A stretch of 64,000 bases of DNA, taken from assembly GCA_963752565.1 (NCBI GenBank), contig CAVVZC010000003.1, forward strand, positions 723,080 to 787,079, given 5' to 3'. The notes beneath the pieces were generated by a model. That model saw nothing but the letters and a program-made list of their open reading frames with translations, made no database searches and was not told where the DNA came from. Positions 34,614 through 60,478 of the stretch are shown here, piece by piece; position 1 is the first letter of the stretch; each line of letters begins with the position of its first letter. The stretch is from an uncultured delta proteobacterium (GTDB lineage Bacteria > Desulfobacterota > Desulfobacteria > Desulfobacterales > UBA11574). Made by a program: the position numbers and the translations under genes.

Positions 34614-34753
34614 TTTCGAAATTTTTCTAAATCCAGTTTCGAAATTCTTCTAAATTAGGGCCCAACAGCGAGATTCATTGCCAACATCGACACAGTTAAC
34701 CGACTGAATTAAAAAGGTTTATATACAATATGATTCGGTGGCATACTTCATGC
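34614..34753 (+). promoter_or_regulatory. Regulon site A: tandem 18-bp UAS + sigma54 promoter
   Basis: TTTCGAAATTTTTCTAAA at 34614, TTTCGAAATTCTTCTAAA at 34637, TGGCATACTTCATGC at 34739. Confidence 0.88.
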
Positions 34754-34897
34754 AAAAAGTAAATTTGTAAGAAGGTACGGTATTTTTCCTATAATAGGGT
34801 TTTAATATTCCGCCCCCTTTTTAAATTTATTAATGGGATAGCTTAGGAGCTTAGTCTTAATGTTGTCACAAAACAGTGTGAAATAAGGAGGTGACAT

Positions 34898-35851
34898 ATG
34901 TTTAAAAAAATACTGCTCGCCACAACAGCTTCACCTAACTGTAACCATGCGGCCAAAGTGGCGTTTGATCTGCAGCTCAAATGGAAGGCGAAACTAATCG
35001 TTCTTCATGTCTTTGGCGTGCATAGGAGTAATTATACTCCTTTTGCCAAGAAAAGCAAAACCATCAAAAAGAAAGTGATGGATGAGGAATATGCGGCCCT
35101 GATAATTGAAGAGATGAAAAACTCCTATGCTAAGGAGTTGGAACATAACGAAAACGTTGTTCTTGAAGCCAATGTCGGGCGGGCTGATAAGGAAATCTTA
35201 AGGAAGGCGCGCGAAGAGGATGTTGACCTAATTATCATGGGTGCCCACACGCGCGAGGAAGGCGCTGGTCCTATGCGGTTCAGGAGTGTGGTTGGAAACA
35301 CAATGCAAAGGGTTGCGAAATCCGCTCGCTGCCCAGTTATTATTATTGGCAGGCCAGGTACTACCGAATGGAAATTATTTTCAAATATTGAATCCGGATT
35401 GAAAATATTTCCAAATATTGTATTTGGAACCGATTTTTCCAAAGCATCTGATTCGGCCTTTCTCTTTGCGTACAAATTGGCAAAAGAAGTTGGAGCCAAG
35501 CTTTACCTTTTCCATGCTTTGAATATCCATTACGGCGATGCCGGCCAGGTTCGTCAGCAGACAGAGATTGAAGAAATGATAAAGGATGCTAAAGAGAAGA
35601 TTGAAAAAAGATATATATCTCAATTGGATGGTTTTGATAATTATGGAATCGAAGTTTGGGAAGGCATCCCGTACGTTGAAATTTTAAAGTTCGCTCGACA
35701 AAAGAATTGTGAACTCATTGTCTTGGCGCATCACACTAAAATAATCGAATCTTCCTTAGCGTCATTCGGTAGCACGATTGAACAAGTAGTTCTCCGCGCA
35801 ACACAGCCGGTTGCAAGTGTAAATCGTCCAGACAGAATTGCTGAAATGTAA
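34898..35851 (+). CDS. Tandem-domain universal stress protein
   Basis: KKILLAT, DLIIMGAH, GTDFS, GST.EQVV; RBS AAGGAGG. Confidence 0.92.
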   Translation: MFKKILLATTASPNCNHAAKVAFDLQLKWKAKLIVLHVFGVHRSNYTPFAKKSKTIKKKVMDEEYAALIIEEMKNSYAKELEHNENVVLEANVGRADKEILRKAREEDVDLIIMGAHTREEGAGPMRFRSVVGNTMQRVAKSARCPVIIIGRPGTTEWKLFSNIESGLKIFPNIVFGTDFSKASDSAFLFAYKLAKEVGAKLYLFHALNIHYGDAGQVRQQTEIEEMIKDAKEKIEKRYISQLDGFDNYGIEVWEGIPYVEILKFARQKNCELIVLAHHTKIIESSLASFGSTIEQVVLRATQPVASVNRPDRIAEM

Positions 35852-36033
35852 TCATTGCAGAAGAACCTCGTGTCCTGAAATGAGAAAAAATTTCCGCAAT
35901 AGCAAGATAATGACTAATGTTAATAGCCGGCAATAGACTCTGTAAAATCTTTGCAAAGGCGGAAAGGGGGATGTTGAAGCTGTTTCTTTTCAGTTGAAAT
36001 TTGAGGTTATATTTGAAACCGAGCATTTGAAAA

Positions 36034-36129
36034 ATGTTGAAAAAGATAAGTCTGAGATCAAGGATATTAATAAATATAACTGCTCTGGTCGTCATCACGA
36101 TCATGGGCGCGTTGGCGATGGTTGGGTAA
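36034..36129 (+). pseudogene. Truncated N-terminus of a membrane sensor (likely histidine kinase)
   Basis: MLKKISLRSRILINITALVVITIMGALAMVG*, typical sensor TM1 start with nothing following. Confidence 0.4.
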
Positions 36130-36539
36130 CCTCACCGGCGGGAATCGATCACAAGCAGCAAAGCTCCTTGGCCTTTCCAGGCCCACCTTACATTCCAAGA
36201 TCGAAAAGTATAGTCTCAAGTTCAAAACTTCCGTTAAAGAAGACCCATCATAGTTATTGAAAAATCCTTCTAAAATGTGGGCACCTTTTCTTTAGATTAT
36301 TATTTTTTTATTGCGATTCATAGATGAATTGCACTAATATTTATTATTATGATCACAGTGCATATCATTTTGCATTGGCCATACATAAAGGTCCATTTTA
36401 AAAAAATACGGTGTGATAATATAATATAATTTTTATTGCCTTTGAGCTGATTGAGCATGTAATTTTCCCGTTATTCTGGTTCATTATAAAAGTCAGAAAA
36501 AATCGAGTATTTTCATTAATAATGCTCAGGAGATAGATT

Positions 36540-38720
36540 ATGAGAGAGCGTAAAATAATGTATGTTTTGATTCTGATAATGATAACAGTTTGTGTTGTTG
36601 TCGCCGGAATTAACATCTTCATTTTGTACGGAACAGCATTTGAGCAGCAACGAGAGCGACTGATGGAGAGTGTTAAGGGTCAAGCGCGTCTGATAGAAGC
36701 AGTTGCCAGATTTAACGTTCTTCATAAAGCAAAATGGCACCCTCAATACGGAGATCCGGCAGACGCAACGCTGGTTGAAATCATAGACGCGCATGAGCAT
36801 TATGTGGGATTTGGAAAGACAGGAGAGTTTATGCTCGCCCGTCGCGATGGAGATAATATTTCTTTTTTATTGAATAACAGGCATGCCAGTTTCGAAAAAC
36901 CACAGCAGATGCGGTTCGACTCGAATCTTGCCGAACCGACGCGTTTGGCGCTATCAGGAAAATCCGGAACAGTGGTTGGTCTTGATTATCGTGGGATGAC
37001 TGTGGTTGCAGCATATGAACCCGTGGCACACTTGAACTTGGGTATAGTGGCAAAAATTGACTTGTCTGAGATTCGGGCGCCGTTTGCGAGAGCTGGGATA
37101 ATAACTGGAGTATTATCAGTTTTGACTGTTGTAGTGTCGGTGTTATTGTTCCTCCGCATTAGCAACCCGATTATTAGAATTTTGGAGGACCGAACTTTCG
37201 AATTTGAGAAAATGAATGAGAAATTGATACAGGAGATAGGAGATCACAAACGATCGCAGATGGACTTACATGAAGCAAAAGACCTGCTTTCCAATACGTT
37301 TGACGCCCTCCAAGACTCGGTGATGGTCATCGATAAAGATTTTCGGGTTAGAATGTCGAATTGGAAAAGCCATGATTACATTTCAGAAAAAGATCGTCAG
37401 GGCCGTCCTTATTGTTATGAGGTGTTTTTGAACCGCAATAAACCCTGTAACCCCTGCCACAACATGGAGGTGTTTGCTACCGGTGAAATAAAGCAGTTTG
37501 AGAATATAAATCCCATTGATGGAAAGATCAGGGATATACGCGTGCTTCCGATGTTTGATGATGAAGGCAAGGTTATCTCGGTGATCGAACACCTCCGTGA
37601 TATCACCGATCTCAAGCGATCAGAGAGGGCGTTGGTGGAAAGCGAACAGCGCTTCCGTGATCTGGTTGAAAATTCACTTATTGGAATATCCATTATTCAA
37701 AATAATCAAATTATCTATCAAAATCCCGAACAGGAGAAACTTATTGGTCCTCTACCACGGGAGCCTAAATTTGCAGATCTTGAAAACATTCATCCAGATG
37801 ACGCTGAAAAGTTAAGACAATTTCACCAGGCCGTCAATTCAGGCCAAGTTCAGACACAGGATACAGATTTTAGGTTCTATCTCCCGGATAATACCAACAA
37901 CACACTTGTCAAAAAATGGGTCCAATGTCGTGCAAGTATCATAGAATATCAAGGAGAAGAAGCGATGTTGGTCAATATGATGGATATTTCCCGGTCTAAG
38001 GAGATGGAGAGGCTTTTAAGAATTCAAGACAAGATGTCTTCTCTGGGGCGTGTGGCTGCCGGTATTGCCCATGAAATAAGAAACCCGCTTTCCGGCATTA
38101 ATATCTACTTAAACACCCTTGAGAAGATCTATGATAAAAGGGAAAACTTGGAAAAAGTAAAGGGGATTTTAGAAAAGATCCAATCAGCCTCAATTAAGAT
38201 TGAGTCTGTGATCAGGAGGGTCATGGATTTTTCAAAACCCGGTGAGCCAAAGTTTGTTTTAACAGACATAAATAAATCCATTAAGGAAGCCGTTAATCTT
38301 TCCGAGGTTACTTTGCGTAAGAAAGGGATTAAGATAGAAAAAGCTCTGGCTTCGGATTTGCCACTGTGTCAAGCCGATCCAAACATGATCGAACAGGTAA
38401 TTTTAAATCTGATCAACAATGCCACTGAAGCCATGCAGGATATGAGGAAAGGAAAAAAAATAGAGATAACCTCATCTATAGGAAATGATTGTATTCTCAT
38501 GATGGTTTCCGATTCTGGTCCCGGGGTGCCTTTAGCCATGAAAGATCAACTATTTGATCCCTTTTATTCCACCAAGAGCAGCGGTACAGGAATCGGCCTA
38601 AGTATCACCCACAGAATTGTCACAGATCATGGTGGTTCTATGGATATCTCAGAAAGTAGATGGGGCGGAGCTGAATTCAGGATTGAATTGCCCATAAAGA
38701 AAGGAATAGGCGACTCATGA
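36540..38720 (+). CDS. Membrane PAS-PAS sensor histidine kinase
   Basis: TM-Cache-TM, PAS with CYEVFLNRNKPCNPC, second PAS, AAGIAHEIRNPL, DSGPG, GTGIGL. Confidence 0.92.
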   Translation: MRERKIMYVLILIMITVCVVVAGINIFILYGTAFEQQRERLMESVKGQARLIEAVARFNVLHKAKWHPQYGDPADATLVEIIDAHEHYVGFGKTGEFMLARRDGDNISFLLNNRHASFEKPQQMRFDSNLAEPTRLALSGKSGTVVGLDYRGMTVVAAYEPVAHLNLGIVAKIDLSEIRAPFARAGIITGVLSVLTVVVSVLLFLRISNPIIRILEDRTFEFEKMNEKLIQEIGDHKRSQMDLHEAKDLLSNTFDALQDSVMVIDKDFRVRMSNWKSHDYISEKDRQGRPYCYEVFLNRNKPCNPCHNMEVFATGEIKQFENINPIDGKIRDIRVLPMFDDEGKVISVIEHLRDITDLKRSERALVESEQRFRDLVENSLIGISIIQNNQIIYQNPEQEKLIGPLPREPKFADLENIHPDDAEKLRQFHQAVNSGQVQTQDTDFRFYLPDNTNNTLVKKWVQCRASIIEYQGEEAMLVNMMDISRSKEMERLLRIQDKMSSLGRVAAGIAHEIRNPLSGINIYLNTLEKIYDKRENLEKVKGILEKIQSASIKIESVIRRVMDFSKPGEPKFVLTDINKSIKEAVNLSEVTLRKKGIKIEKALASDLPLCQADPNMIEQVILNLINNATEAMQDMRKGKKIEITSSIGNDCILMMVSDSGPGVPLAMKDQLFDPFYSTKSSGTGIGLSITHRIVTDHGGSMDISESRWGGAEFRIELPIKKGIGDS

Positions 38721-40105
38721 TTCAATATTCTATTTATATCGTCGATGATGAAGAGAGCATAAGGGAAGGGGTAACGATGGCCCTTGAGGAACACTATAAA
38801 ATAGAAGCATTCTCTACAGCCGAGACCGCAATTGACGCCATAGAGGCAAATCTCCCTGACCTGGTTCTGCTTGACATCGGATTACCGGGTATGGATGGGA
38901 TGAATGCGCTTCGCGAAATTAAGGGTCTGCATCCTGATGTACTAGTTATTATGATAACTGCCTATGAAGATATCGCCAGCGTAATCTCTGCCATGAAGCT
39001 GGGTGCCTATGATTATGTGGTAAAACCGATTCACATGGATAGTTTGGAGATGACAATTCGAAATGCGCTTGAAACGATCCGACTAAGAAAAGAAGTTCAG
39101 TTGCTCCAAGAGAGATATCTTAGGGAGAACCTTCCTTGTTTTATAAGTGAAAGCAATGCTATCCAGAATGTTATGGCTTTTATAGAGATGGTGGCAAAAA
39201 GCCCAGATACTCCGATTCTTATTCTCGGAGAAACCGGTACAGGTAAAGAATTGATTGCCAGTGCGATTCATTACAGAAGCCCCAATTTCAAGGGGCCTTT
39301 CATGACTGTGAATTGTGCTGCCATCCCAAAAGACCTTATTGAAAGCGAACTTTTTGGGTATGAAAAAGGCGCCTTCAGCGGAGCGGGGGCATCAGGCAAA
39401 AAAGGCTTAATAGAAGAGGCGGCAAATGGGACCCTGTTTCTTGATGAGGTGGGGGATTTGAGTCTTGAAGCCCAGGCCAAGCTTCTTAGATTTCTCGAAA
39501 TGGGTGAATTTTACAGGGTTGGCGGGACAAAGAAATTGCAAATTGAAACAAGAATCGTTTCCGCCACCAACAAAGATTTAGACAGTATGATAGAAAAAGG
39601 CCTGTTTCGAAAGGACCTTTATTTCCGAGTCGGAGTAATAAAAGTACAGGCACCCTCGTTGAATGAACGTCGCGGTGATATCATGCCACTTGCCAAGCAC
39701 TTCATTATGGAGTTCAGCAATAAATTCGGCAAGGCATTCACCGACATCTCTGCAAATGCAGAGAATGCTCTTATGACACACAACTGGACAGGCCATGTTC
39801 GTGAACTAAAAAACCTTATAGAGAAAGGAGTGCTTGTAGGAGAGGGACCAATGTTGGAGGTCGAGGATCTCGGCTTAGGAAAAATATCCGGAAGTGACAC
39901 ACCCAAGAAAGCAACAGATGGAATTATTTTTCCACCGCTTCCAGCTCAAGGCATCGACCTTGCTTTCACTCAAGAATCTTTAGAAAAATATTATATTGAA
40001 GAAGCCTTTAGAATGGCCGAAGGCAACGAAAGTAGGGCTGCCAGACTCCTTAACATGAACCACCACACCTTCCGTTACCGGAGAAAGAAGCTACAAAACA
40101 AATAG
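38717..40105 (+). CDS. NtrC-family sigma54-dependent response regulator
   Basis: REC, GETGTGKE, ESELFGY, GAFSGA, Fis HTH; ATGA overlap with the kinase. Confidence 0.93.
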   Translation: MIQYSIYIVDDEESIREGVTMALEEHYKIEAFSTAETAIDAIEANLPDLVLLDIGLPGMDGMNALREIKGLHPDVLVIMITAYEDIASVISAMKLGAYDYVVKPIHMDSLEMTIRNALETIRLRKEVQLLQERYLRENLPCFISESNAIQNVMAFIEMVAKSPDTPILILGETGTGKELIASAIHYRSPNFKGPFMTVNCAAIPKDLIESELFGYEKGAFSGAGASGKKGLIEEAANGTLFLDEVGDLSLEAQAKLLRFLEMGEFYRVGGTKKLQIETRIVSATNKDLDSMIEKGLFRKDLYFRVGVIKVQAPSLNERRGDIMPLAKHFIMEFSNKFGKAFTDISANAENALMTHNWTGHVRELKNLIEKGVLVGEGPMLEVEDLGLGKISGSDTPKKATDGIIFPPLPAQGIDLAFTQESLEKYYIEEAFRMAEGNESRAARLLNMNHHTFRYRRKKLQNK

Positions 40106-40234: not shown

Positions 40235-40374
40235 TTTCGAAATTTTTCTAAAACAAGTTTCGAAATTCTTCTAAATTAGGGCTCTGTGATAAGATGCTGG
40301 GCGAACGGTAAAACTATAACTACTATGACTTTATAAGGTTTATCTTAATTATGATTCGATGGCATACTTCATGC
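40235..40374 (+). promoter_or_regulatory. Regulon site B: tandem UAS + sigma54 promoter
   Basis: Boxes at 40235 and 40258; TGGCATACTTCATGC at 40360. Confidence 0.88.
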
Positions 40375-40445
40375 AAACCGTAAAATGGTAAGAAGCCACA
40401 GTATTTTCTCAATTAGACGAATTTTAATGTTCCAGGAGACTTCAG

Positions 40446-40856
40446 ATGGACCTGTATAGCAAACTCAAAGACAAGAAAATATTACTCGTAGACGACGATG
40501 AGTGGATCAGGGACTCCTTAACCGTGTACTTCGGTGCTGAAGGCTGCCACATTCTGGCGGTAGAGACGGCTGAAGAGGGTCTGGAATTACTCAAACAGGA
40601 AGATTGGGATATCATTCTTACAGACTATAAATTACCGGGCATAGATGGGTTGACATTTTCTAAAAAGATTCAGGGGATTCGTCCGGATGCCATAAAAATA
40701 CTCATCACGGCCTACAAAAATAAAGAGGTAGTTTCTGAAGCAGTGAGTGCCGGAATTCAAGATCTTATTGATAAGCCATTCACAATCAAGACTATTGAAG
40801 ATTCTATTTCTCGATTGATCCTCAAGAATGAAAAAGAAATTAAGAAAAGTTCATAA
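40446..40856 (+). CDS. Single-domain response regulator
   Basis: LLVDDD, TDYKLPG, ITAY, KPF. Confidence 0.9.
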   Translation: MDLYSKLKDKKILLVDDDEWIRDSLTVYFGAEGCHILAVETAEEGLELLKQEDWDIILTDYKLPGIDGLTFSKKIQGIRPDAIKILITAYKNKEVVSEAVSAGIQDLIDKPFTIKTIEDSISRLILKNEKEIKKSS

Positions 40857-40987
40857 TGTTTTTAAAGGTTCACTTATTTCAAAAAGCAAGGGGTTTGGCC
40901 ACAATATACCTCTGACATTTGTAAGTCGTTTAACCAAAGTATAATGAGCGAATGGATGGATTGGTAGAATTCACGGAAGGAAAAATC

Positions 40988-41104
40988 ATGAAAACCTTGG
41001 ACATTTTCTTGGTAACTTCTTTAGGTCTTACAGCAGCATGGTGCATTTACACATTAATTGTATTCTTAGGTTTTATTTTTATTACCCAGCCTTGGTATAT
41101 GTAG
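40988..41104 (+). CDS. Small 38-aa membrane protein
   Basis: RBS GGAAGGA; MKTLDIFLVTSLGLTAAWCIYTLIVFLGFIFITQPWYM. Confidence 0.5.
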   Translation: MKTLDIFLVTSLGLTAAWCIYTLIVFLGFIFITQPWYM

Positions 41105-41194
41105 CTGTTTTACGTAACGCCGGAGATTTAGATTAAAGTTCCCAAAAACTTAAAAAAGAACACTTAAAAAAGATTTAATTTAAGGAGGCGTAAC

Positions 41195-41491
41195 ATGTCA
41201 CATGTTAAATCAAAACAAAAGATTAAACGGCGAAGAGTGAAATTTTCATTAAAATCAGACGGAGCCAAAGAGGTTATCTTGATGGGAGATTTTAACAATT
41301 GGAATCCCAAAAAACACTCGATGCAAAGTAATGGTGAGGGAGTATGGAACAAAACAGTGGTGCTTTCTCCTGGAAAATACGAGTACAAGTTTTTGATTGA
41401 CGGTGAATGGAGGGAAGACCCCCAGAATGATCAAACCTGTCCGAATTCTTTCGGGACTCACAACAGTGTTCTTCACATAACCGTACCGTAA
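41195..41491 (+). CDS. Stand-alone glycogen-binding (CBM48 / AMPK-beta-like) protein
   Basis: GDFNNW, LSPGKYEYKFLIDGEW..DP, NSFGTHN. Confidence 0.9.
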   Translation: MSHVKSKQKIKRRRVKFSLKSDGAKEVILMGDFNNWNPKKHSMQSNGEGVWNKTVVLSPGKYEYKFLIDGEWREDPQNDQTCPNSFGTHNSVLHITVP

Positions 41492-41519
41492 AAAGTTCCA
41501 GCCATTATGGAGGATAACA

Positions 41520-41795
41520 ATGGCATCAAACTTCCATATGTTTTCTTTTAAAACCAGAGACAGTCTTCATCTAAAATTGGAGGGCGATTTTGATGGAAAT
41601 TCTGCCTATGAATTGCTCGAAACTCTAAAAAAATATGATAGCGGTTCTTATCAGATCTTTATTGACACTAATGACCTTAAAACCATCTATCCATTCGGTA
41701 AGGAAGTGTTTCAAAAGAAACTCGGTGCTTTCAAACAGCAATTAAGCAACCTTATCTTTATTGGGGAAAATGGACATATATTTTTGCCAAATTAG
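41520..41795 (+). CDS. STAS-like (anti-sigma antagonist-like) small protein
   Basis: LHLKLEGDFDGNSA.EL, IFIDT..L; RBS GGAGG. Confidence 0.65.
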   Translation: MASNFHMFSFKTRDSLHLKLEGDFDGNSAYELLETLKKYDSGSYQIFIDTNDLKTIYPFGKEVFQKKLGAFKQQLSNLIFIGENGHIFLPN

Positions 41796-42058
41796 AAGCC
41801 GTTGCATCGGTGCACCACCATACCGGTTGATGGCGCAGCTCCGACCCGACACAATAGAAACTATATCTATTAGAATGACGGGCGGGATATCTTGAATGTG
41901 TCCTTGGAGATATCAGGGGAGGATTGAGGAGCTATAATCAAATAAAAGCAAGGCAATAAACAGCCTACAGATCTGAAAATCGAGCAATGCCGAAGGATAA
42001 GCCTCTTTAACAAACAGGGACTTATCTAAGGCGTTGCGGAAGATTAAAGTGTATTAAA

Positions 42059-42421
42059 ATGGAAAAAATTCTGATCATCGATAATCAAAAATGGATACTA
42101 GATCTTTTTCATAACGAATTGCTCCGTGAGAGGTATACAGTTTCAGTTGCACCGGATGCTGAAATAATTCAGGAACACATTATGTCAGGCAAGTTCGATA
42201 TGGTGCTTTTAAGTCTTTATCTGCAGCATGGTTACTTCGTATGGGAAGTTTTACAGCACATCAAAAAGTTAGACCCAGACCTCCCGGTGATTATTCTTGC
42301 CGAATATGACAAATATCTATATGAACCGCAACTCGAATTAGCCGAGGACTATGTGGTCAAGAGCTGTTTGGCGGTAAAAGAACTCAAACAAAAGATGGAC
42401 GCAATTTTATGTGATGAATAG
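42059..42421 (+). CDS. Atypical response regulator (phospho-Asp replaced)
   Basis: KILIID, DMVLLSL, PDLPVII, YVVKS. Confidence 0.75.
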   Translation: MEKILIIDNQKWILDLFHNELLRERYTVSVAPDAEIIQEHIMSGKFDMVLLSLYLQHGYFVWEVLQHIKKLDPDLPVIILAEYDKYLYEPQLELAEDYVVKSCLAVKELKQKMDAILCDE

Positions 42422-42533
42422 CTGACTACAGCAGCAAACCTTGCGTCTTGCATCTCCCCGAAAGGCGGGATCTAACGACCGGCAAACTCAACAATCGCTC
42501 AGCTGAGTTTTAACGATAAAGGAGGAAAAAGCA

Positions 42534-42821
42534 ATGCAGCATAGCGACACTTATTGGAAGATGAGAAGAAAAATGGCCAAGGATTTAGGCTACCAAATTG
42601 ATGAAATTCAAGCTGAGAAAAAGAGCTCGAAAACGGAAGTCAACGCTGAGATTGTCAAACATTTCCAGGCGCTGAGGCAGAAAACAGATAACGTGCTGAA
42701 AAAATTGGACGACTTAAAATATGCCGGCGAGAACACGAAGGAAAATATCAAAGAAGAAGTGGAGAAAGCAATGGATGATCTGAAGGCGGCTGTGGACGAC
42801 GCTATATCCAGATACAGGTAA
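42534..42821 (+). CDS. Small coiled-coil protein (Sll1863-like stress protein)
   Basis: RBS AAGGAGG; helical, ending EKAMDDLKAAVDDAISRYR. Confidence 0.65.
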   Translation: MQHSDTYWKMRRKMAKDLGYQIDEIQAEKKSSKTEVNAEIVKHFQALRQKTDNVLKKLDDLKYAGENTKENIKEEVEKAMDDLKAAVDDAISRYR

Positions 42822-43020
42822 ATTAGCGAAAAATATAGTCTGAAATGATGTGACGGGGAATGGAGCAAATATGGCTCTCTGTTTTCATTGCATCCGGAGT
42901 AAAATGAGGCTTCTTGCCGCCCCGTTGAGACGGGATCTTCACTGCGTTCCGACAAGCGGTGGGGGTATTTAAAAACCATGATAGATTTTTTTATCAAATT
43001 TGTAGATACAGGAGGGAGAC

Positions 43021-43470
43021 ATGTATAAAACTATATTGGTTCCATTGGACGGCTCGAAACGAGCTGAGGCAATATTGCCTCATGTTAAGAATCTGTCACG
43101 ATGTTTCAACGCCAAAGTGATTTTTTTTATAGTTGCGGAACCGTCGCTTATGTTGGAATATGATGAAGTCATTGATATGCCAAAGTACCTTGAAATACGA
43201 GATCATCAGAAGAAGGAAACAGAAACTTATCTTGCTTCTCTTCAAAAAGGGTTTCGCGCAAAGGGTATCAAAGTTCAAACTATCATCGGCCATGGGCTGG
43301 TTGTAAAAGCGATTATTGATGTTGCTGAACGCGAAAATGCGGACCTGGTGGCGATGGCCAGTCACGGTCGCAGCGGTTTGTCCAGAGCATTTTATGGAAG
43401 CGTCGCAGCCGGGGTGTTGCAACGTATAGATCGACCCTTGCTCCTCATTCGTTCACGGCGTAATGATTAG
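43021..43470 (+). CDS. Universal stress protein
   Basis: ILVPLDGS, DLVAMASHGRSG, GSVA. Confidence 0.93.
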   Translation: MYKTILVPLDGSKRAEAILPHVKNLSRCFNAKVIFFIVAEPSLMLEYDEVIDMPKYLEIRDHQKKETETYLASLQKGFRAKGIKVQTIIGHGLVVKAIIDVAERENADLVAMASHGRSGLSRAFYGSVAAGVLQRIDRPLLLIRSRRND

Positions 43471-43535
43471 CCCGGATATTCCCCAAGTTTGATTTGTTTA
43501 TTTGCTTGATATGAAAAATGAGACAGTATCGAACT

Positions 43536-44804: not shown

Positions 44805-44903
44805 TCTACCTCAACTTTCTTTAATTGGGTCCTATACCGCCGCCGCCTTGCATTTACTTACCACCTTCAGATTCTGGATTCTATCTTTTGGATAAAATGT
44901 CGT

Positions 44904-47007: not shown

Positions 47008-47030
47008 AATTTACCTCATATTAGTTTCCT

Positions 47031-49470: not shown

Positions 49471-49547
49471 AATTTACCTCTTTCTGTGCCTACATATGAA
49501 TCCTTTACGCATACAGCCCATAACAACCAAGTTCATTGATGTGAGAT

Positions 49548-50048: not shown

Positions 50049-50073
50049 CCTATCTTTTCTATCTCCATTTCTA

Positions 50074-50523: not shown

Positions 50524-50656
50524 GGATCCTTCCTTGCTGGCGACTCGCTGGAGAATTATCAGAATTTGCCCTTTTCCTTTTGAAATTGATCTTTGGGCAT
50601 AGACATCTTTCCTTCACCTTTATTTCTGATATAAATCTAATTTTTGTTAACTCAGG

Positions 50657-51136: not shown

Positions 51137-51371
51137 CCTCCTTTAAGGTGTTATATGCCTCTGTATTCATTATACCAAGTTAGATTATATCCTATTCACA
51201 GTATTTTAATCCTTACACATCATCTCACTATTTTGTTTAGGTTTTTGATCAACCAAGTAGAGATTCTTCAAACTACATAACAACTAAGGTTTTGCGAGAC
51301 CGGCTAAAAAGTTATTCGTGAGGAGGAACAAAATCTTCTATCCTGCCCTTTGTTGTGGCTCAAAAACTGCC

Positions 51372-51974: not shown

Positions 51975-52132
51975 GAAGATTACCTCCTTTTAACCCTTAA
52001 GGGCATGTTGATATTTTTTGCTCCCCTCACGAAAAAATTATTTTATATGTGGCTCGTAATATAATTTAAAAGAGACTCTTCAAAAGATATTAATTGATCT
52101 TACTGTTTTTCCCTGACCTAACTTCCTGATGT

Positions 52133-52147
52133 GCATGGATCATGCCA
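52133..52147 (-). promoter_or_regulatory. sigma54 promoter (leftward, regulon site C)
   Basis: Reverse strand TGGCATGATCCATGC. Confidence 0.82.
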
Positions 52148-52230
52148 CCAAGTCATGATCTGAAAAAATAATAAAATTCCAAACAGTTAATATCATTATC
52201 ACCTGTGATTAATTCTTCTGGGCAGTCAAA

Positions 52231-52271
52231 TTTAGAAATTTTGCGAAATTTCTTTTCGCAATTTTTCTAAA
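52231..52271. promoter_or_regulatory. Regulon site C: tandem UAS shared by divergent promoters
   Basis: TTTAGAAATTTTGCGAAA at 52231 and TTTCGCAATTTTTCTAAA at 52254. Confidence 0.85.
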
Positions 52272-52411: not shown

Positions 52412-52426
52412 TGGTACATTTCATGC
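52412..52426 (+). promoter_or_regulatory. sigma54 promoter (rightward, regulon site C)
   Basis: TGGTACATTTCATGC (GG-N10-GC). Confidence 0.7.
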
Positions 52427-52489
52427 ATAAAGCTAGGTAGAAAGAAAAGTCACAATGGTTATTTAATAATTATATGAAGGGGGTGTGTT

Positions 52490-53662
52490 ATGAGTAATTT
52501 ACCCAAGGATTTCGATCCTCCATATCGAAAGAATATGGATTCCGGGGCGGCTGAACAAGACAGGGTCATTGACGATTTCCCGTCCTTTAATCCAGCATAA
52601 GTACATCGTTACGAGTAACAAACGGGGCGTCGGGAAAACAAGCCTTGCTGTCAATTTAGCAGTTGTCCTTTCCAAAAGAAAGGTGAAAGTCGGCCTGATC
52701 GATCTTGATCTTCATGGCACAAATATTTCCAATATGCTCGGGCTCCAAGGAATTTATGAAACCGATGTAGATAAGCAAGTTTGTCCCCGAATCCTATTCA
52801 GATTATCTGAAAGTGATATCTATTGAATCCATTATGAAGGATGTGAACCAGACCGTGATCTGGCGAGGGGACTTGAAAAGCCATGTCATTCGCCAGTTCA
52901 TTGCTGACGTAAGTTGGGGAGACTTGGATTATCTTATCATCGATTCCATATCGGGTACGGGTGATGAACCGCTCGCCGTGGCTCAAGCGATCCAGGATGC
53001 CAAAGTCATTTTCGTTTCAGCCCCCGAGAAGGAATATCTGCCTCGTGTCAGAAAACAAGTCAGAGAATTGATTAATTTATACGAAAACGCCCAAAATTCT
53101 ATTTTGGGTTTCGTAGAAAATATGAGCGGTTTATTTTGTAAAAATTGCGACAAAACCGCGGAAGGAATGATCAGAGAATCAAATATCATGCAATGTCCGC
53201 TACTTAGGTCGGATTCCCCTTGATCCTCACATGCCGTATTGCACTGCAGCAGGGCAATCTTATCTGGAGAAATATCCGAATTCCGAAGCAGCACATGGAT
53301 ATGAATTAATTGTCGATAAAATTATTGAAGACAGCCGTTCACAAAAATCTGTGATCACAAAGATTGCCATTCCAATATCCGAAGATCGGCTTTTTCCATC
53401 TTTTGGTAAGGCAACCGAATTTGCCGTTTTCCATATACAAAATCAGCAAATAATAAAAAAGGAAATCTTGCACCCACCTTCTCATGCACCGAATGTGTTC
53501 CCCGATTGGCTTCACGATTTGGGGGTTAGCACTATCATCGCAGGGAACATGGGCCCTAAGGCCATGGAGAATTTTAGAGCAAAGGGAACCACCGTCATCA
53601 CCGGCTCCTCTAGTACAAGCCCTGATGAACTGGTTCAACAGCACCTTTCTCGAAACCGGTAA
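52490..53662 (+). CDS. Divergent Mrp/NBP35 P-loop ATPase with C-terminal NifB/NifX domain (several frameshifts)
   Basis: SNKRGVGKT, DLDLHG, VIWRG, WGDLDYLIID, VENMS, CKNC; C-terminal KIAIP..FG.A..F..PP.H.P. Confidence 0.8.
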
Positions 53663-53750
53663 GGATATCTCTTTTAATTTGAGCAGAATAAGAAGGTATA
53701 TGGACTGGTCTCGGAAATTAAAGGCCGAGCAGAACGTCTAAGAGGAAAAA

Positions 53751-54710
53751 ATGAGCAGCATGATTGCTTTTGGCCCTGTCCCATCCAGGCGTTTGGGGCA
53801 CAGCCTCGGGATAAATAATATCCCGCCCAAGATATGCACCTATTCCTGTGTATACTGCCAGTTGGGCCGTACTAAAAAAATGCAGGCTGAGCGTCGTATG
53901 TTCTATAATCCGCAAAAAATCTTACAGGATGTCCAGGACAAGGTGAAAAAGGTGAAAGAGACCGGAGACCCCATTGACTACTTGACATTCGTGCCCGATG
54001 GGGAACCCACGCTGGACATCAATCTCGCCTATGAAATCGATTTATTGAAATCTTTGGGAGTTAAGATTGCCGTGATTACCAACGGTTCCCTTATTTGGCG
54101 CGAAGATGTGAGAGAGGCGCTGATGAAAGCAGATTGGGTTTCATTGAAGATAGACTCTGTACAAGAAGAGTTTTGGCGCAGAATTAATCGGCCTTATGGA
54201 ACCTTGCAACTCTCTTTGATTAAGCAAGGAATGTTCGAATTTGCGCGAACTTACAGGGGAGAACTTGTAACGGAAACAATGCTTGTTAGAACGGTCAATG
54301 ACAGCGAAGATGGCCTCAGTAAGATTGCCGACTTGTTGGCTCGGTTGAAGCCTGACAGGGCTTATTTATCCATTCCTACACGGCCGCCTGCAGAGGAATG
54401 GGCACAACCTCCTCCCGAGGAAATTATCAATCAAGCTTATCACATCCTCCATGAACGGATTGATCAGGTGGAATATCTGATTGGATACGAAGGCAATGAT
54501 TTCGCCTTTACGGGTAACGTCGAGGAAGACCTTTTGAGTATCACCGCCGTGCATCCAATGCGGGAAGAGGCAGTAAGCGACTTCCTGGCGCGTGCCGGAG
54601 CTGATTGGTCTGTCATACAGAGATTGATCGATCGGGGTCAGCTCATCGAGACGAAGTACAAAGGACGGAAGTTCTATATGAGAAGACTACCTGAAAGATA
54701 CAATGGATAG
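53751..54710 (+). CDS. Radical SAM protein (TYW1-like/uncharacterised)
   Basis: FGPVPSRRLG.SLGIN, CTYSCVYC, DGEPTL, TNGSL. Confidence 0.9.
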   Translation: MSSMIAFGPVPSRRLGHSLGINNIPPKICTYSCVYCQLGRTKKMQAERRMFYNPQKILQDVQDKVKKVKETGDPIDYLTFVPDGEPTLDINLAYEIDLLKSLGVKIAVITNGSLIWREDVREALMKADWVSLKIDSVQEEFWRRINRPYGTLQLSLIKQGMFEFARTYRGELVTETMLVRTVNDSEDGLSKIADLLARLKPDRAYLSIPTRPPAEEWAQPPPEEIINQAYHILHERIDQVEYLIGYEGNDFAFTGNVEEDLLSITAVHPMREEAVSDFLARAGADWSVIQRLIDRGQLIETKYKGRKFYMRRLPERYNG

Positions 54711-55940: not shown

Positions 55941-56079
55941 TTTCGAAATTTTGCGAAAAGAGATTTCGAAATTTTTCTAAATCTGGTTGCGTCTCAGAGA
56001 AGCTTAGAAGCTTTGTCAATTCGAACTATTTGAAATTATAACAATTATCAAGAATGTATGTTGATGGCACGTTTTATGC
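55941..56079 (+). promoter_or_regulatory. Regulon site D: tandem UAS + sigma54 promoter
   Basis: Boxes at 55941 and 55964; TGGCACGTTTTATGC at 56065. Confidence 0.88.
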
Positions 56080-56170
56080 TTTTAAGAATTCATAAGAAAT
56101 TGGATTGTTATAATCTACCTTGGGCAAAAGTAATGGCTTACAGGATAAATTGGTTGAGGAGGGTAATAAG

Positions 56171-56443
56171 ATGGAAATAAGATTAAATGATTTGTTTCAA
56201 AGGTTTAAAACAAAAGGATTTATGCCCGTTGAAATCTCGGGACTTGTTAAAGATGTTTTTAATATAATTGGCAACAGTGGGTATTCCGCAATTACCACCA
56301 TTGACCAGGAGCTCGAGGAATTAGGATGGGGCATAGGTATCATGGACAATGTTACCCATGAATTGGTCACATCGCTGCTTGAAGATAATAGTTCTACTGA
56401 TGTTGAGAGACATATTCATAATATGTATTTATTGGAGCATTGA
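56171..56443 (+). CDS. Hypothetical protein
   Basis: RBS GAGGAGG before ATG 56171; first gene after promoter D. Confidence 0.65.
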   Translation: MEIRLNDLFQRFKTKGFMPVEISGLVKDVFNIIGNSGYSAITTIDQELEELGWGIGIMDNVTHELVTSLLEDNSSTDVERHIHNMYLLEH

Positions 56444-56600
56444 GTGAAGAAGTAAAGCAGGTGAAGAACAATAGGTTCTTTTGATAGTTGATCACAGACT
56501 TGGCTTTAGTCGGTCGTTTGTAAAGGCCTAAATTATTAATTTCATAGTTGTTAGCTATTTTATAAACCTTTATGAGCATAACGAAAAAAAGGAGGATGTT

Positions 56601-57083
56601 ATGGTGAACGTGAACGATTTGATAACATTTTATCTGTTCAGTAAATTTTCCGAGGAGCAATTAGAGGAACTCGCTGAAATCACCGAAAAAAAAACCTACA
56701 AAAAACACGCTCATGTTTATGAGCGTGGCGACAGCGCCAAGCATTTATTTGTGGTGAGTAAGGGTCTCGTAAGCCTAAGGAGATTTGACCTCGGAGATCA
56801 GGTGGGCATTGCCTTTGAGACGCGCGAGAGCGGGGAGTTATTCGGTGCCGCTTCCTTCATGCATCCTCAGCATTATACGCTGACAGCTGTTTGCATTGAA
56901 GATTCAGAGGTAATAGCAATAGACGCCGACAAGCTGTCTGATTTGTGCAAAAAGGACCCGGCTGTGGGATACAAGCTGATGCTCGAAATCGCTCGGGTCT
57001 ATTTTGAGCGCTACAAAAGTGCCAAAAGAAACCTTCATGAGATGGTTCGAACACCTACGATTATAACTGCTCTTCCAGGTTAG
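56601..57083 (+). CDS. Stand-alone cyclic-nucleotide-binding (Crp-type) domain protein
   Basis: LFS.FSEEQL, YERGD.A..LFVV.KG.V, GELFG, TA.C; no HTH. Confidence 0.88.
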   Translation: MVNVNDLITFYLFSKFSEEQLEELAEITEKKTYKKHAHVYERGDSAKHLFVVSKGLVSLRRFDLGDQVGIAFETRESGELFGAASFMHPQHYTLTAVCIEDSEVIAIDADKLSDLCKKDPAVGYKLMLEIARVYFERYKSAKRNLHEMVRTPTIITALPG

Positions 57084-57214
57084 CCGATCTCTCTCATCAC
57101 GGCCATCTCCCCTTTGGAGAGAGAAAAAGACTGACCCGTATTTTATTCGGAGGTGGGGGGATTACACGTACAGTTATTGAGAAGTTACTTTAATAAATAA
57201 CAAGGAGGAAAATC

Positions 57215-57430
57215 ATGAATGAGTCCACTTACAAAATTATTGAGTTAGTAGGAACAAGCAGTGTTTCTTGGGAGGATGCTGCCAAGAATGCTGTAGAAAC
57301 GGCATCCAAGCCCCTTGAGGATCTGAGAATCGCGGAAGTTACTAAACTCGATATGAAGGTCGAGAATGGAAAGGTCTCCACTTATCGCTCCAGAGTAAGC
57401 CTTTCCTTTAAATATAAAAGCGGTGCTTGA
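57215..57430 (+). CDS. Dodecin (flavin-binding) family protein
   Basis: YKIIELVGTS..SWEDAA.NAV..A..L, YR..V.LSFKY. Confidence 0.92.
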   Translation: MNESTYKIIELVGTSSVSWEDAAKNAVETASKPLEDLRIAEVTKLDMKVENGKVSTYRSRVSLSFKYKSGA

Positions 57431-57811
57431 TGACGCCATAAGGGGTGGGAGTGACCACAATGATGCAGCTTCTGCCCCTTTTAGGTCAATAGTGCCCATT
57501 TTATTTATCTACAACGCGTTATTCTTCGGCCTTAATAAATCATCTTGCGAATTACACAGAATGAAAGAATTTTAGTGGGGCGAGGAAACTGGATATATAC
57601 ATGAAATTCGCAATACCTTTAACTGATAGGGAAATTAGAAAACAAAATTTCTGAAATATTCTTGCTCATAAAGATGCTCTTGTCACATGAAAAAACAGTC
57701 ATTATATCAGGGAGTTAAGAGCGTTCCGATGGGTTGATTTCATTCCCAAATTTACCTGGGGTTATAAATGAGTAATTTAACAATTTTAATTCTTGAAAGG
57801 AGGGAATTAAA

Positions 57812-58270
57812 ATGGAACAGGCACAGCCGGTATGCCCTTTAACTAAAGGTAAGAGAATACTTGTCGCGATGGATAGATCAAAATATAGCGAGAAGGCTTT
57901 TGATCAGGCGATAAGCATCGCAAAGATATGCAAAAGTATCCTTTTTGTAGTTAGCGTCGTTGACCTGTATCCTGAAGTGAAGGCAATTGTACTTGCCCTT
58001 GAGGAAAAGGGAAAGGTGTTAAAGGGGACAAAGGAATTCCTTGAAGGAGTCAAGGCTAAAGCCACAAAAGAAAATATACCATGTGAAACGATTGTGCATA
58101 TAGGCGGACAGCCCCATGAGTTTATCATTCAAGAAGCAAAGGAAAAAAATGTTGACCTCATCGTGATGGGAACCCATGGAAGGACCGGGCTAGATAAACT
58201 TTTAATAGGCAGTGTTGCTGAGAGAGTCGTTGGCCACGCGCCATGTGCTGTGATGGTAACCCCCGCTTAG
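57812..58270 (+). CDS. Universal stress protein
   Basis: ILVAMD.S, DLIVMGTHGRTG, GSVAERVV. Confidence 0.93.
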   Translation: MEQAQPVCPLTKGKRILVAMDRSKYSEKAFDQAISIAKICKSILFVVSVVDLYPEVKAIVLALEEKGKVLKGTKEFLEGVKAKATKENIPCETIVHIGGQPHEFIIQEAKEKNVDLIVMGTHGRTGLDKLLIGSVAERVVGHAPCAVMVTPA

Positions 58271-58327
58271 ATATAGCATATAGCGGAACACCTCGGTTAC
58301 GTCACATAGCATTCATATGAGGATACT

Positions 58328-59059
58328 ATGGAAAACACATTCTGGACGGCCTTGGGAGCCAGTTCTTTGGCCGCATTAGTGACCTCGGTGGGCATTTATG
58401 TCATACGCCGCTTCGAGCAATGGGGCCGTAAGAATACCATCTACTTCATCTGTTTCGCTGCCGGCGTCCTGATATCAGTGTCATTCTTGCACATCATCCC
58501 GAAGGCATTTTCCATGAATTCAAATGCCCCATTCTATCTGTTGGCCGGGTACCTTAGCCTGCACTTATTTAATCGGTTCATCAACGCTTTTGTGTGCGAT
58601 AAAGAATCGGATGCGCAATACGGGATTGGCCTTGTACCCATGCTTGGAATCGGGTTCCACTCATTTATCGACGGGTTCATCTATTCCATTACCTTCACCG
58701 TCAGTATCTTTACCGGGCTACTGGCAGCCACCGGTATGGTTCTTCACGAATTTCCCGAGGGGATCATAACGTACCTGCTGCTGAAACGGGGCGGGTTCAA
58801 GGAGAGGACGTCGCTGCTCTTTGCCTTATTGGCTGCGGCCCTGACCACGCCCCTGGGCATGCTCGTGTCGTACCCCTTGATCAGCAAAATTGACAAACCT
58901 CTCCTGGGTGCCCTACTGGCATTTTCTGCAGGAGCCCTTGTTTACGTGGGGGCCACTCACCTTCTGCCTCAGGCTGAAACGGAGCAAAAGAGATACAGCC
59001 TTTTCGCCCTGGGTGCCGGCATTTTGGTGGCCGCGGTTATTATCTTTTCCAAGGCATAG
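58328..59059 (+). CDS. ZIP family metal transporter
   Basis: FAAGVL, HSFIDG, HEFPEG, HLLP. Confidence 0.9.
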   Translation: MENTFWTALGASSLAALVTSVGIYVIRRFEQWGRKNTIYFICFAAGVLISVSFLHIIPKAFSMNSNAPFYLLAGYLSLHLFNRFINAFVCDKESDAQYGIGLVPMLGIGFHSFIDGFIYSITFTVSIFTGLLAATGMVLHEFPEGIITYLLLKRGGFKERTSLLFALLAAALTTPLGMLVSYPLISKIDKPLLGALLAFSAGALVYVGATHLLPQAETEQKRYSLFALGAGILVAAVIIFSKA

Positions 59060-59069
59060 GTCCGTTCCC

Positions 59070-59174
59070 ATGACTTCTTCTTTCAACTCTCACCACCGGC
59101 GCTATGAGGCGTGGTTCAGTCGTCATGAAGCCGCCTACTTTTCGGAACTCTTGGCAGTCCGCGCATTGCTCCCT
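59070..59174 (+). pseudogene. Truncated class I SAM-dependent methyltransferase (N-terminal 35 aa)
   Basis: MTSSFNSHHRRYEAWFSRHEAAYFSELLAVRALLP; similarity ends before the glycine-rich SAM motif, next to the IS end. Confidence 0.6.
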
Positions 59175-59181
59175 AATTTTC

Positions 59182-60304
59182 TATATGATCGCATTAATTA
59201 ATGCAGCATAATGACTTTAATCGTTCGTTTGGTTTAGCGTGGTCTTTTAAGTATTCAATTACTGCATTTTCAAGCGCTATAAGATTTTCAAAAAAGGTAT
59301 TATGAGTCACACGATATCTCAGATTCTTCCAAACCCTTTCAACCGGATTTAGCTCAGGCGAGTAAGGTGGAAGAAAAAGCAGTTCTAATCGTTTTTTATG
59401 TATTTCCACAAATTCAGCAACCTTATTGCTTTTATGCGAAGCTTGCATTGTCAAGGACTAATACTATCTTTTTCCGTGTTTTAAAATTTCGAATCAGCCA
59501 TTTGAGATAATAGATGAAGGTATCGGAATCAAAACCATCAAAGATCAGTGAAAATAAGCGACCATTACGGTGGTTAACTGCACCGCAGACGCCCACTTTT
59601 TCTTTAGTAATCGGGCATTTTACTTGACTCTTGTGGCCACGCGGAAACCACCCTCTTGTGATCGTGCTTTCTCTTCGTAAAAAGGCTTCATCATAGAATA
59701 GAAGCTCTATTTTGTTATTGGGAATGATTTCATCGTGAATTTTTTTTAAAGGTATCTTGCTTTTCGGGATCAGCGCCAACGGGCATTTTACGAGGCCGCT
59801 GCAGAGAAAAACCAAGCTGTTTAAATAGGTTCTGGCATTGCCGCACCTTTAGCTGAACACCGTATTTTACTTTTAAGTGATGGGATAAGAGTTTGCCGTC
59901 CCATCTGGCCTGATCGTATCCAAGGTCTTTTGGAGATTTTTCTAAGTTGCTTTTTAATCGTAAACGATCATCATCGTTAAGTTGGGATCGGCGGCCTCGA
60001 CCTGGCGTATCTCTTAAGCCCTGAAAGCCCGATTCATTTAGCCTGTGGATCCAGCGCTGAACTGTAGTAGAATTTATTCCAAACAATCGGGCAACGTAGC
60101 TTAATGCATGACCATCACAGATCAGCGCGATAACATCTAAACGACGCACAAAACGTGCATCTTCATTAACAGCAAAGTAGTTTTGAATTTCGGTTTTAAC
60201 CTTTTCTACCTCTTTGATTTGTAGCATTTTTGGCATAATTCACCTCCTTGAGGTGAATGTACCATAAAATATTTTATACTGCAATATATATTACGTTTAT
60301 TATA
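59182..60304 (-). mobile_element. IS630-family insertion sequence
   Basis: Imperfect terminal IRs starting TATA (TATATGATCGCATTAATTAATGCAGCATAA vs TATAATAAACGTAATATATATTGCAGTATAA); transposase inside. Confidence 0.85.
59194..60236 (-). CDS. IS630 transposase (HTH + DDE), programmed frameshift at poly-A plus one extra indel
   Basis: HTH ORF ends FKK at A-run; FYDE, VLDNAS, LPPYSPELNPVERVW. Confidence 0.9.
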
Positions 60305-60338
60305 TTCCCATTTATGTTATTTGTGATTGTCTTTTCGA

Positions 60339-60478
60339 TTTCGAAATTTTGCGAAAAGAGATTTCGATATTTTTCTAATTTTTCATTTCACAGGAAAGTC
60401 ATTAAATCGCCCCATCAAAATTAACTATTTGAATTTATTGCATCTATAATGCCCATAGCAGGATGGCACACTTTATGC
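60339..60478 (+). promoter_or_regulatory. Regulon site E: tandem UAS + sigma54 promoter
   Basis: Boxes at 60339 and 60362; TGGCACACTTTATGC at 60464. Confidence 0.88.

Follow-up and report, generated by a model that had tools for sequence, protein, structure and literature searches.

Locus and genomic context

The stretch of DNA considered here (the window) comprises 64,000 nucleotides of an uncultured delta proteobacterium of the Desulfobacterales and corresponds to C3:723080-787079 of a 4.05-Mb genome of 28 contigs with 43.6% G+C. It harbours an island of genes with sigma54-type promoters, upstream of which pairs of a recurrent 18-nt box occur at fixed distances, and within the island lies a gene pair for a two-component system whose response regulator is proposed to bind these boxes. 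The first gene of the pair (36540..38720, plus strand) encodes a sensor histidine kinase composed of two predicted membrane segments, a PAS domain with a CX11CX2C motif, a second PAS domain, HisKA and HATPase; it is preceded by a sigma70-like TTTAAA-17-TATAAT sequence at 36397-36425 and overlaps the regulator gene by 4 nt. The latter (38717..40105, plus strand) encodes an NtrC-type enhancer-binding protein consisting of a receiver (Response_reg, E 6.8e-28), an AAA+ domain (PF00158, E 2.5e-64) and a Fis-type helix-turn-helix (HTH; HTH_8, E 4.2e-08). Residues that can be read from its sequence include DD10-11, D53, T81 and K103, a GAFSGA loop and the HTH helix NHHTFRYRRKKL. This loop variant is compatible with activation (PMC4641369; this and the other papers cited below are drawn on in excerpt, and what is said of them holds for those excerpts). 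The regulator scores 377 bits against the NtrC equivalog TIGR01818, below the cut-off of 558.6, and none of the NCBIfam equivalog cut-offs is reached among the 25 best of its 116 family matches. The sigma54-activator domain has 42 matches in the genome, just two of which lie near the island, at 24661-26079 and 38717-40105, and in roughly 50 scanned open reading frames (ORFs) of the island no further DNA-binding domain was detected except that of an IS630-like fragment.

Tandem boxes and promoter architecture

When both strands of the window were searched for the 18-nt box pattern with at most three mismatches, 20 matches were obtained against 1.35 expected, the maximum in 100 shuffled sequences being six. 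The ten boxes in five pairs that had been described in an earlier inspection of the letters alone (hereafter the sequence-only reading) were all recovered with zero to two mismatches, and the two box starts of each pair are 23 bp apart. These pairs, termed enhancers A to E, occupy 34614-34631 and 34637-34654 (A, 34614..34654), 40235-40252 and 40258-40275 (B, 40235..40275), 52231-52248 and 52254-52271 (C, 52231..52271), 55941-55958 and 55964-55981 (D, 55941..55981), and 60339-60356 and 60362-60379 (E, 60339..60379). Enhancer B begins 130 bp past the stop of the regulator gene, a position that is kept in orthologous loci, enhancer C serves two divergent promoters, and a weak third box overlaps enhancer D at 55931-55948. 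The sequence AAGAG between the boxes is common to enhancers D, E and F, the last of which lies past the window end. Each box is an imperfect palindrome with the symmetrised consensus TTTCGAAAT.ATTTCGAAA; symmetrising 16 boxes gives TTTCGAAATATTTCGAAA, and the box at C3:792361 is exactly that perfect palindrome. Alternatively, the box may be viewed as a pair of self-complementary 8-mers, TTTCGAAA, spaced by one helical turn.

All six -24/-12 promoters of the sequence-only reading are present as sequence matches, as are the distances that it gave from the proximal box start to the TGG. On the plus strand these are promoters A (34739..34754) and B (40360..40375), both reading TGGCATACTTCATGCA and with predicted starts near 34765 and 40386, respectively, C-plus (52412..52427, TGGTACATTTCATGCA), D (56065..56080, TGGCACGTTTTATGCT) and E (60464..60479, TGGCACACTTTATGCT), while C-minus (TGGCATGATCCATGCA) occupies 52132..52147 on the minus strand with its TGG at 52147. 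For the other four, starts are predicted near 52121 (C-minus), 52438 (C-plus), 56091 (D) and 60490 (E). From proximal box start to TGG the distance is 102, 102, 101, 101 and 102 bp for A, B, C-minus, D and E, and 158 bp for C-plus at 52412; the dyad-symmetric tandem sites have their box starts 101 and 124 bp before the TGG. Together with four promoters past the window end, described below, the ten island promoters fit, as sequence matches, TGG(C/T)A(C/T)-N5-ATGC(A/T). Their -12 element is ATGC rather than the canonical TTGC in 10/10 cases (the base before TGC in the window being at 34751, 40372, 52135, 52424, 56077 and 60476) as well as in 45 of the 49 promoters of a non-redundant regulon set; among 151 loose matches outside the island, T is the most frequent base at the same position (78) and A occurs in 30. 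A regulon-wide ATGC variant of the -12 element may tune basal silencing.

The non-redundant set was obtained from 58 promoter regions of this genome and its relatives, from which pairs at least 85% identical were removed. In the resulting 49 regions the distance from the proximal box to the TGG is 97-103 bp (101 bp in 25/49) and the box spacing 21-23 bp (23 bp in 39/49), and the spacers have diverged in sequence. Behind a homologue of the regulator with 64% identity (genome G038), two weak boxes (14 bits) are situated at L006:8750-8841; their distance from the TGG is 91 bp and not 101, which, judged from the sequence, is one helical turn shorter and would keep the same helix face. The best-conserved stretch between enhancer and promoter in the 49 regions is tAActatTTGaAaTTAtA, from -42 to -25 relative to the TGG. 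Here the sequence-only reading had placed a site resembling that of integration host factor (IHF) at A, B, D and E, and AAC at -41 to -39 followed by TG at -34/-33 is indeed found at all four and at C-minus too. The elements lie at 34694..34706 (A, AGTTAACCGACTG, 6/9 consensus positions), 40315..40327 (B, TATAACTACTATG), 56020..56032 (D, TTCGAACTATTTG) and 60419..60431 (E, AATTAACTATTTG, 8/9) on the plus strand and at 52180..52192 (C-minus, TATTAACTGTTTG, 8/9) on the minus strand; promoter C-plus has no IHF-like match at the usual offset. The Escherichia coli IHF consensus has been given as WATCARxxxxTTR (PMC3897727). The mean match of the 49 promoters to this E. coli consensus, WATCARNNNNTTR, peaks among all offsets at -45, with 5.37/9 against a mean of 3.64, and 23/49 promoters match at least 6/9 of its positions there. 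Within the element AA-N4-TTG is conserved and the WAT and C positions are not, so that IHF-like appears to be a fair name for it. One rpoN gene (Sigma54_DBD match of 212.7 bits in a 485-aa open frame) and 11 matches to the HU/IHF family are present in the genome. The architecture of upstream activating sequence, IHF-like element and -24/-12 promoter, which had been recognised from the window, stands and is conserved across families in the 49 regions.

Extent of the regulon

A weight matrix built from the ten window boxes was used to scan the whole genome. All boxes of at least 24.3 bits fall in C3:757693-792361, and a lone further box (24.0 bits) lies at C3:599558. The 4.05-Mb genome contains 253 promoter-like matches; a box scoring 15 bits or more is present in the 260 bp upstream of exactly ten of them, all within C3:757-797 kb. 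Only the ten island promoters thus carry upstream boxes, and neither the box scan nor the promoter scan revealed regulon members elsewhere in this assembly.

The sequence-only reading had taken the regulon in the window to be complete, which it is not: a further three box pairs, with four promoters, follow just past the window end. Enhancers F (C3:788936/788959; L001:1937-1977), G (C3:792361/792384; L001:5362-5402) and H (C3:796789/796812, up to C3:796829; L001:9790-9830) have their proximal boxes 100-101 bp from plus-strand promoters at C3:789059 (L001:2060), C3:792485 (L001:5486) and C3:796913 (L001:9914), and a divergent minus-strand promoter at C3:792220 (L001:5221) is 158 bp from its nearest box. 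The regulon consequently amounts to eight enhancers and ten promoters in about 40 kb. The genes behind the four F/G/H promoters encode a radical SAM protein; Pkinase-like and universal stress proteins (Usp); a rubrerythrin-like protein, Usp, an AAA_33 kinase and Usp; and an Mrp fragment with a CBS protein.

Association of the boxes with the regulator

Among 15 genomes of the same genus, five (G001, G002, G006, G008 and G011) possess an ortholog of the regulator with 89-99% identity, the best match in the other ten reaching about 40% at most. Single boxes with at most one mismatch number 11-21 in the five ortholog-bearing genomes, 18 here and 1-7 in the other ten, in which reversed-pattern controls give 0-3. 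At the level of the order, the box-pair pattern with at most three mismatches was matched in 19 of 301 genomes, at two or more sites in 12 of them, and the reversed control in 8/301, at most once per strand. A homologue of the regulator at E 1e-140 is encoded by 87 of the 301 genomes; the tandem motif is found in 13 of the 16 genomes with a regulator of 70% identity or more, in 3 of 71 with a 55-69% homologue and in 3 of 214 that lack a homologue at this threshold. As genomes that are related do not represent independent cases, these figures are given as counts and not as a test. In 387 additional genomes of the phylum from outside the order, matches were only sporadic, with two mismatches or fewer in G352, G471 and G678.

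The association extends to physical linkage. The motif lies on the contig of the regulator gene in 12 genomes spanning several families (G011, G063, G088, G108, G140, G216, G220, G246, G276, G279, G287 and G304), G088 and G108 being single-contig genomes, and a contig scan for the locus returned 21 loci, mostly from metagenome-assembled genomes of uncultured Desulfobacterales, Desulfobacteraceae or Deltaproteobacteria. Boxes are situated 3' of the regulator stop in 14/15 loci with at least 69% identity and in 0/5 loci with 62% or less, counting loci whose flanking sequence was available, and the motif is kept beside regulators that are only 67-75% identical. In a FastTree phylogeny of 40 distinct orthologs, the motif-linked proteins all belong to one clade of 31 rows (SH-like support 94) and none to the nine-row outgroup; the tree is used for this clade statement only, as its label, which marks boxes up to 450 bp past the regulator gene, gives too low a measure of the link, the enhancer of one sub-clade being located elsewhere on the contig. 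The helix NHHTFRYR is kept in the motif-linked group. A variant that may reflect co-variation of helix and operator, as a single case read from sequence, is provided by locus L054, whose regulator is 72% identical and has the helix NRHTFRYRRKEL: standard boxes are absent, and two copies of the palindrome AAATTGCGCAATTT, 23 bp apart at L054:5498-5534, replace the TTTCGAAA-type boxes 128 and 105 bp before a TGGCAT-N5-ATGC promoter, which is followed by an ortholog of the same single-domain receiver that lies behind promoter B here. In the kinase, the transmitter half (last PAS, HisKA and HATPase) is conserved among orthologs and the sensor half varies even within the genus. The membrane segments and PAS domain with CX11CX2C of this genome recur in G002, other PAS domains are present in G006 and G011, GAF and PAS with C...CxxC occur in G008 and others, and dCache, HAMP and PAS in G279 and G108.

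Taken together, the box pairs are read as the upstream activating sequences of one two-component system, kinase 36540-38720 and regulator 38717-40105, an assignment predicted from sequence to which we attach a probability of about 0.8. Several findings weigh against this reading. The L054 regulator, at 72% identity, carries a different tandem palindrome, and L058 (62% identical) keeps the NHHTFRYR helix with no clear boxes. Three genomes with a regulator at least 70% identical (G065, G186 and G278, assemblies of 260-1020 contigs) have no tandem motif, and three others (G104, G117 and G311, 87-91% complete) have the motif and no regulator at E 1e-140, while genomes with a single match are near the level of the reversed control (8/301). 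G034, G246, G279, G304, G216, G088 and G220 represent a sub-clade in which the regulator gene is not immediately followed by the enhancer. As regards the output of the system, gaps of 260-730 bp inside several operons leave the operon extents as inferences. Evidence for expression is weak: the RNA data, available as contigs only, comprise two recorded RNA runs with small shares (0.11 and 0.08) and a third, X24, which was guessed to be RNA and is probably DNA, and within 34500-44400, metatranscriptome contigs of one study match the kinase gene in part, and operon B at 41225-41751 and 42318-42860, with 0-1 mismatches. This is a hint of expression that carries no starts, strand or level and to which DNA carry-over may have contributed, stretches free of contigs being uninformative.

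The most serious competitor is that the boxes are bound by another protein, either a sigma54 activator encoded elsewhere or a factor that is not an activator and represses or modulates the promoters. As the island comes and goes as a unit, co-occurrence by itself does not distinguish the regulator from other island genes, and with 42 sigma54-activator domains in the genome a distant paralog is possible, though unlikely, as the binder; L058, with an identical recognition helix, points the same way. On the other hand, the box pairs adjoin the regulator ortholog in the 12 genomes of several families and follow its gene in nearly all close loci, the island ORFs scanned offer no alternative DNA-binding domain beyond the transposase fragment, and dyad boxes at about -117 and -140 suit activator sites, so that binding by another protein is considered improbable.

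It could also be argued that the shared module is the mere footprint of a recent duplication of promoter cassettes together with Usp and orange-protein (Orp) genes, its geometry stemming from descent and not from function. Site A is indeed a copy of module B. Modules A and B are about 70% identical over 350 bp and near-identical over boxes, promoter and leader, with 13-20 of 20 bases alike in segments starting at 34600-34640 (boxes) and 34720-34780 (promoter and leader) and a diverged spacer. Relative to G002, G006, G008 and G011, moreover, 34451-35851, which includes enhancer A, promoter A and a tandem Usp gene, constitutes an insertion, synteny with this genome beginning only at about 36130-36500; A is thus regarded as a duplicated cassette of this lineage. 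The AAGAG shared by D, E and F and the multi-copy nature of the target families would fit a wider role of duplication. However, the spacers between box and promoter have diverged and yet distances of 97-103 bp hold in the 49 regions from many families, and the motif is retained next to regulators of only 67-75% identity, which makes descent alone a very unlikely explanation of the geometry. The weakest candidate, binding by the neighbouring activator 24661-26079, the sole other sigma54 activator gene near the island, is rejected, given that its phyletic pattern does not track the motif: orthologs with 79-94% identity occur in 14/15 same-genus genomes, including 9/10 that lack box enrichment and the 38717 regulator, and the motif-bearing G034 has no homologue at E 1e-140. 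Phyletic co-occurrence, adjacency of gene and motif and the dismissal of this neighbour thus support the regulator that the sequence-only reading had judged most plausible.

The position of the regulator between sites A and B, which that reading had also noted, is not a conserved layout, the conserved feature being an enhancer beside the kinase-regulator pair. Autoregulation of the pair from upstream is not the ancestral design. Such autoregulation from site A was considered and rejected as a conserved arrangement, A and its Usp gene being absent in the four relatives named above and A being separated from the kinase gene by a gap of 688 bp, over which read-through is possible.

Target genes and putative operons

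Most of the roughly 30 island genes had been proposed to be co-regulated; for the first gene behind each promoter this is secure, and for the remainder it stays an inference. Behind promoter A, the first gene (34898..35851, plus strand) encodes a tandem universal stress protein with two stretches of PF00582 (E 3.8e-42). Putative operon B (40446..43470, plus strand), with internal gaps of up to 340 bp, comprises a single-domain receiver (40446-40856), a CBM48 protein, an ORF without assigned function, a second receiver, an sll1863-family stress protein (42534-42821) and a Usp (43021-43470). Putative operon C-minus (43536..51974, minus strand) consists of ten ORFs, only the first of which (51372-51974) is directly behind its promoter, and specifies GNAT, Usp, two halves of an ArsP-type permease, an ABC ATPase, an FtsX/MacB permease, NifX-like and LolA-like proteins, a 472-aa protein without assigned function and GT1. 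Divergently from it, putative operon C-plus (52569..54710, plus strand) encodes an Mrp/ParA-type ATPase, a NifX-like protein (53231-53662) and a radical SAM protein (53751-54710). The ATPase is divided between two frames with a 14-nt overlap, 52569-52826 (85 aa, profile positions 2-68) and 52813-53223 (136 aa, 75-187), which may represent a frameshift, a pseudogene or an assembly error. The ArsP-type permease (49548-50523, minus strand) and the radical SAM gene at L001:2507-3563 are each present as two adjacent ORFs; these two-ORF layouts recur in distant relatives (L022 and L035) and are therefore probably genuine two-gene arrangements rather than breaks.

Between the radical SAM gene and operon D, a 1.4-kb stretch (54711-56119) contains enhancer D and ORFs of 76 aa at most. 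Putative operon D (56120..59059, plus strand) includes an ORF without assigned function, a cyclic nucleotide (cNMP)-binding protein (56601-57083), a Usp (57812-58270), ahead of which there is a gap of 728 bp, and a ZIP transporter (58328-59059). An N-terminal fragment of an IS630-like transposase (HTH_33, HTH_32 and HTH_28) is located between operons D and E at 59730-60236 on the minus strand. Putative operon E (60674..62458, plus strand), which may extend past the window, comprises a NifX-like/orange-protein-like gene (60674-61021) and a gene for MrpORP (61208-62458) that matches the equivalog NF041136 with 502.3 bits against a cut-off of 450. Operons could not be delimited by a scan for terminators and sigma70 promoters in 34000-53999, which remained at the level of shuffled sequence (22 terminator-like matches vs 17.8, and 59 promoter-like matches vs 47.7), and an Rfam scan of 30000-64000 returned no family at gathering score. 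A sigma54-type site with no upstream box, TGGCACATTCCTTGCT, lies at 29441 on the plus strand, about 3.4 kb past position 26079, where the 24661 activator gene ends, and may be part of a different regulon.

According to Pfam and NCBIfam scans, eleven Usp-domain ORFs, two of them with tandem stretches, are situated behind the ten promoters, making Usp the most numerous domain family among the scanned ORFs. Genes of the orange-protein complex are represented by MrpORP, Mrp/ParA fragments and four NifX-like (Nitro_FeMo-Co) proteins. Further targets include the sll1863-family stress protein, radical SAM proteins, CBS-pair proteins, a rubrerythrin-like and a cNMP-binding protein, AAA_33/APH kinase-like and Pkinase-like proteins, GNAT and GT1 enzymes and the two single-domain receivers, in addition to ZIP, Na/H and ArsP-type transporters and a MacB-type ABC system with a LolA-like protein. 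In genomes of other families, box-pair promoters are again followed by orthologs of the receiver, NifX-like/Mrp, radical SAM, Usp, AAA_33, CBS, ZIP and rubrerythrin-like genes, indicating that a core regulon is conserved.

Proposed mechanism and significance

In the proposed scheme each 18-bp imperfect palindrome would bind one regulator dimer through the Fis-type HTH. Following phosphorylation of D53 by the kinase, the two boxes 23 bp apart would seed an active AAA+ oligomer whose centres would lie about 92 and 115 bp ahead of the TGG. A bend in the DNA at the IHF-like site, the centre of which is about 39 bp ahead of the TGG, would bring the oligomer to the sigma54 holoenzyme at the -24/-12 promoter, which would then be opened by ATP hydrolysis. 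The system would thereby drive ten promoters from eight enhancers in one 40-kb island, and the conserved promoter B would yield a single-domain receiver that probably exerts feedback on the phosphorelay. The mechanism itself seems to be the classical, textbook scheme of enhancer-binding proteins, the regulon and operator being what appears new. As to the signal, redox, oxygen or energy stress can be suggested tentatively. It is more speculative still, and on balance doubtful, that this is a conserved dormancy-like or energy/redox-stress regulon of Desulfobacterales in which a fixed output, comprising the operator, the 101-bp IHF-phased enhancer geometry, the ATGC -12 element and the Usp/Orp/CBS/kinase targets, has been combined with repeated swapping of the sensor part of the kinase (membrane-anchored PAS with CX11CX2C, GAF-PAS or dCache-HAMP-PAS). 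Were this to hold, the enigmatic orange-protein complex would be tied to a general stress programme and not to cell division alone, and sulfate reducers of different orders would use activators that are not orthologous for the same orp targets and promoter type.

Almost no sigma54 activator systems have been assigned in uncultured sulfate-reducer lineages of this kind, and for one of the approximately 35-40 such activators a testable wiring diagram is now available that comprises regulator, operator, ten promoters and targets. In it, the orange-protein/MrpORP genes, which are poorly understood, are members of a stress regulon rich in Usp, and a replacement of the regulator relative to OrpR of Desulfovibrio is indicated. 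Furthermore, the uniform enhancer-promoter distance and the regulon-wide ATGC -12 element make the ten promoters a natural set for addressing the constraints of geometry in enhancer-dependent transcription.

Comparison with known systems

In the literature searched, the box strings were not found as a bacterial operator, the papers containing them bearing titles of eukaryotic or vector work; TTTCGAAA was absent from the sigma54 papers listed, and no description of a Usp/sigma54 regulon in Desulfobacterales was encountered. This agrees with the earlier impression that the operator is not that of any characterised regulator, supplementary site lists being outside the reach of these searches. In the excerpt of a further study, universal stress proteins (COG0589) are reported as enriched in Planctomycetia, with no tie to Desulfobacteria seen there (PMC12316311). 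The closest known system, as far as it is described in the excerpts, is that of the divergent orp operons of Desulfovibrio vulgaris Hildenborough, which depend on sigma54, IHF and OrpR with the operator GGGCGYRTTTTGCGCCC (PMC8359166, PMC3897727). Both systems have sigma54 promoters, an upstream activator palindrome with an IHF site in between, divergent promoter pairs and targets of the orange-protein complex, here including MrpORP at 61208-62458 and several NifX-like genes. OrpR, however, is described as a single-component PAS-AAA+-HTH protein (PMC4641369), whereas the regulator here is of the receiver-AAA+-HTH type with its own kinase and no PAS domain. The OrpR regulon is reported, in the excerpted text, as two orp operons only, in contrast to ten promoters with Usp-rich targets here, and the OrpR operator GGGCGYRTTTTGCGCCC has no match in this genome with at most one mismatch and two matches with two mismatches, neither of them in the island.

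The promoter glnAp2 represents the classical NtrC-type enhancer, with tandem dyad sites, IHF and a -24/-12 element. The proposed system would share with it tandem dyad sites at 100-150 bp upstream, a Fis-type HTH on an AAA+ activator that is switched on by phosphorylation, and bending of the DNA that connects enhancer to promoter; this general scheme has been summarised (PMC11841059). The differences reside in the operator sequence, the regulon content, the unusually uniform enhancer-promoter distance and the -12 element, ATGC instead of TTGC. A functional analogue, to judge from the excerpted account, is NmpR of the NmpRSTU system, which governs an oxygen-utilisation regulon in Myxococcus xanthus through the operator GCGCA-N5-TGCGC (PMC11841059). 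It resembles the present regulator in being an NtrC-like response regulator with two sites upstream of sigma54 promoters and with Usp and CBS targets, and differs in its operator and in acting via a multi-component phosphorelay.

In D. vulgaris, DVU3305 has been described in the excerpts as a two-component activator of general stress that is linked to a Lon-protease response regulator (PMC3333781, PMC4641369). Like the regulator discussed here it is a response-regulator activator with the GAFSGA loop variant and targets containing UspA-type domains; in contrast to the DVU3305 system, the general domain scans of the island ORFs revealed no Lon domain. DosS/DosR of Mycobacterium tuberculosis is a dormancy two-component system with a clustered Usp-rich regulon, in which DosR is of the NarL type and acts at sigma70-type promoters. 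This dormancy regulon is also mentioned in the excerpted account of NmpR (PMC11841059). Here, too, one two-component system would switch on a clustered Usp-rich regulon, and as the two regulator families are unrelated the resemblance would be an analogy of output only.

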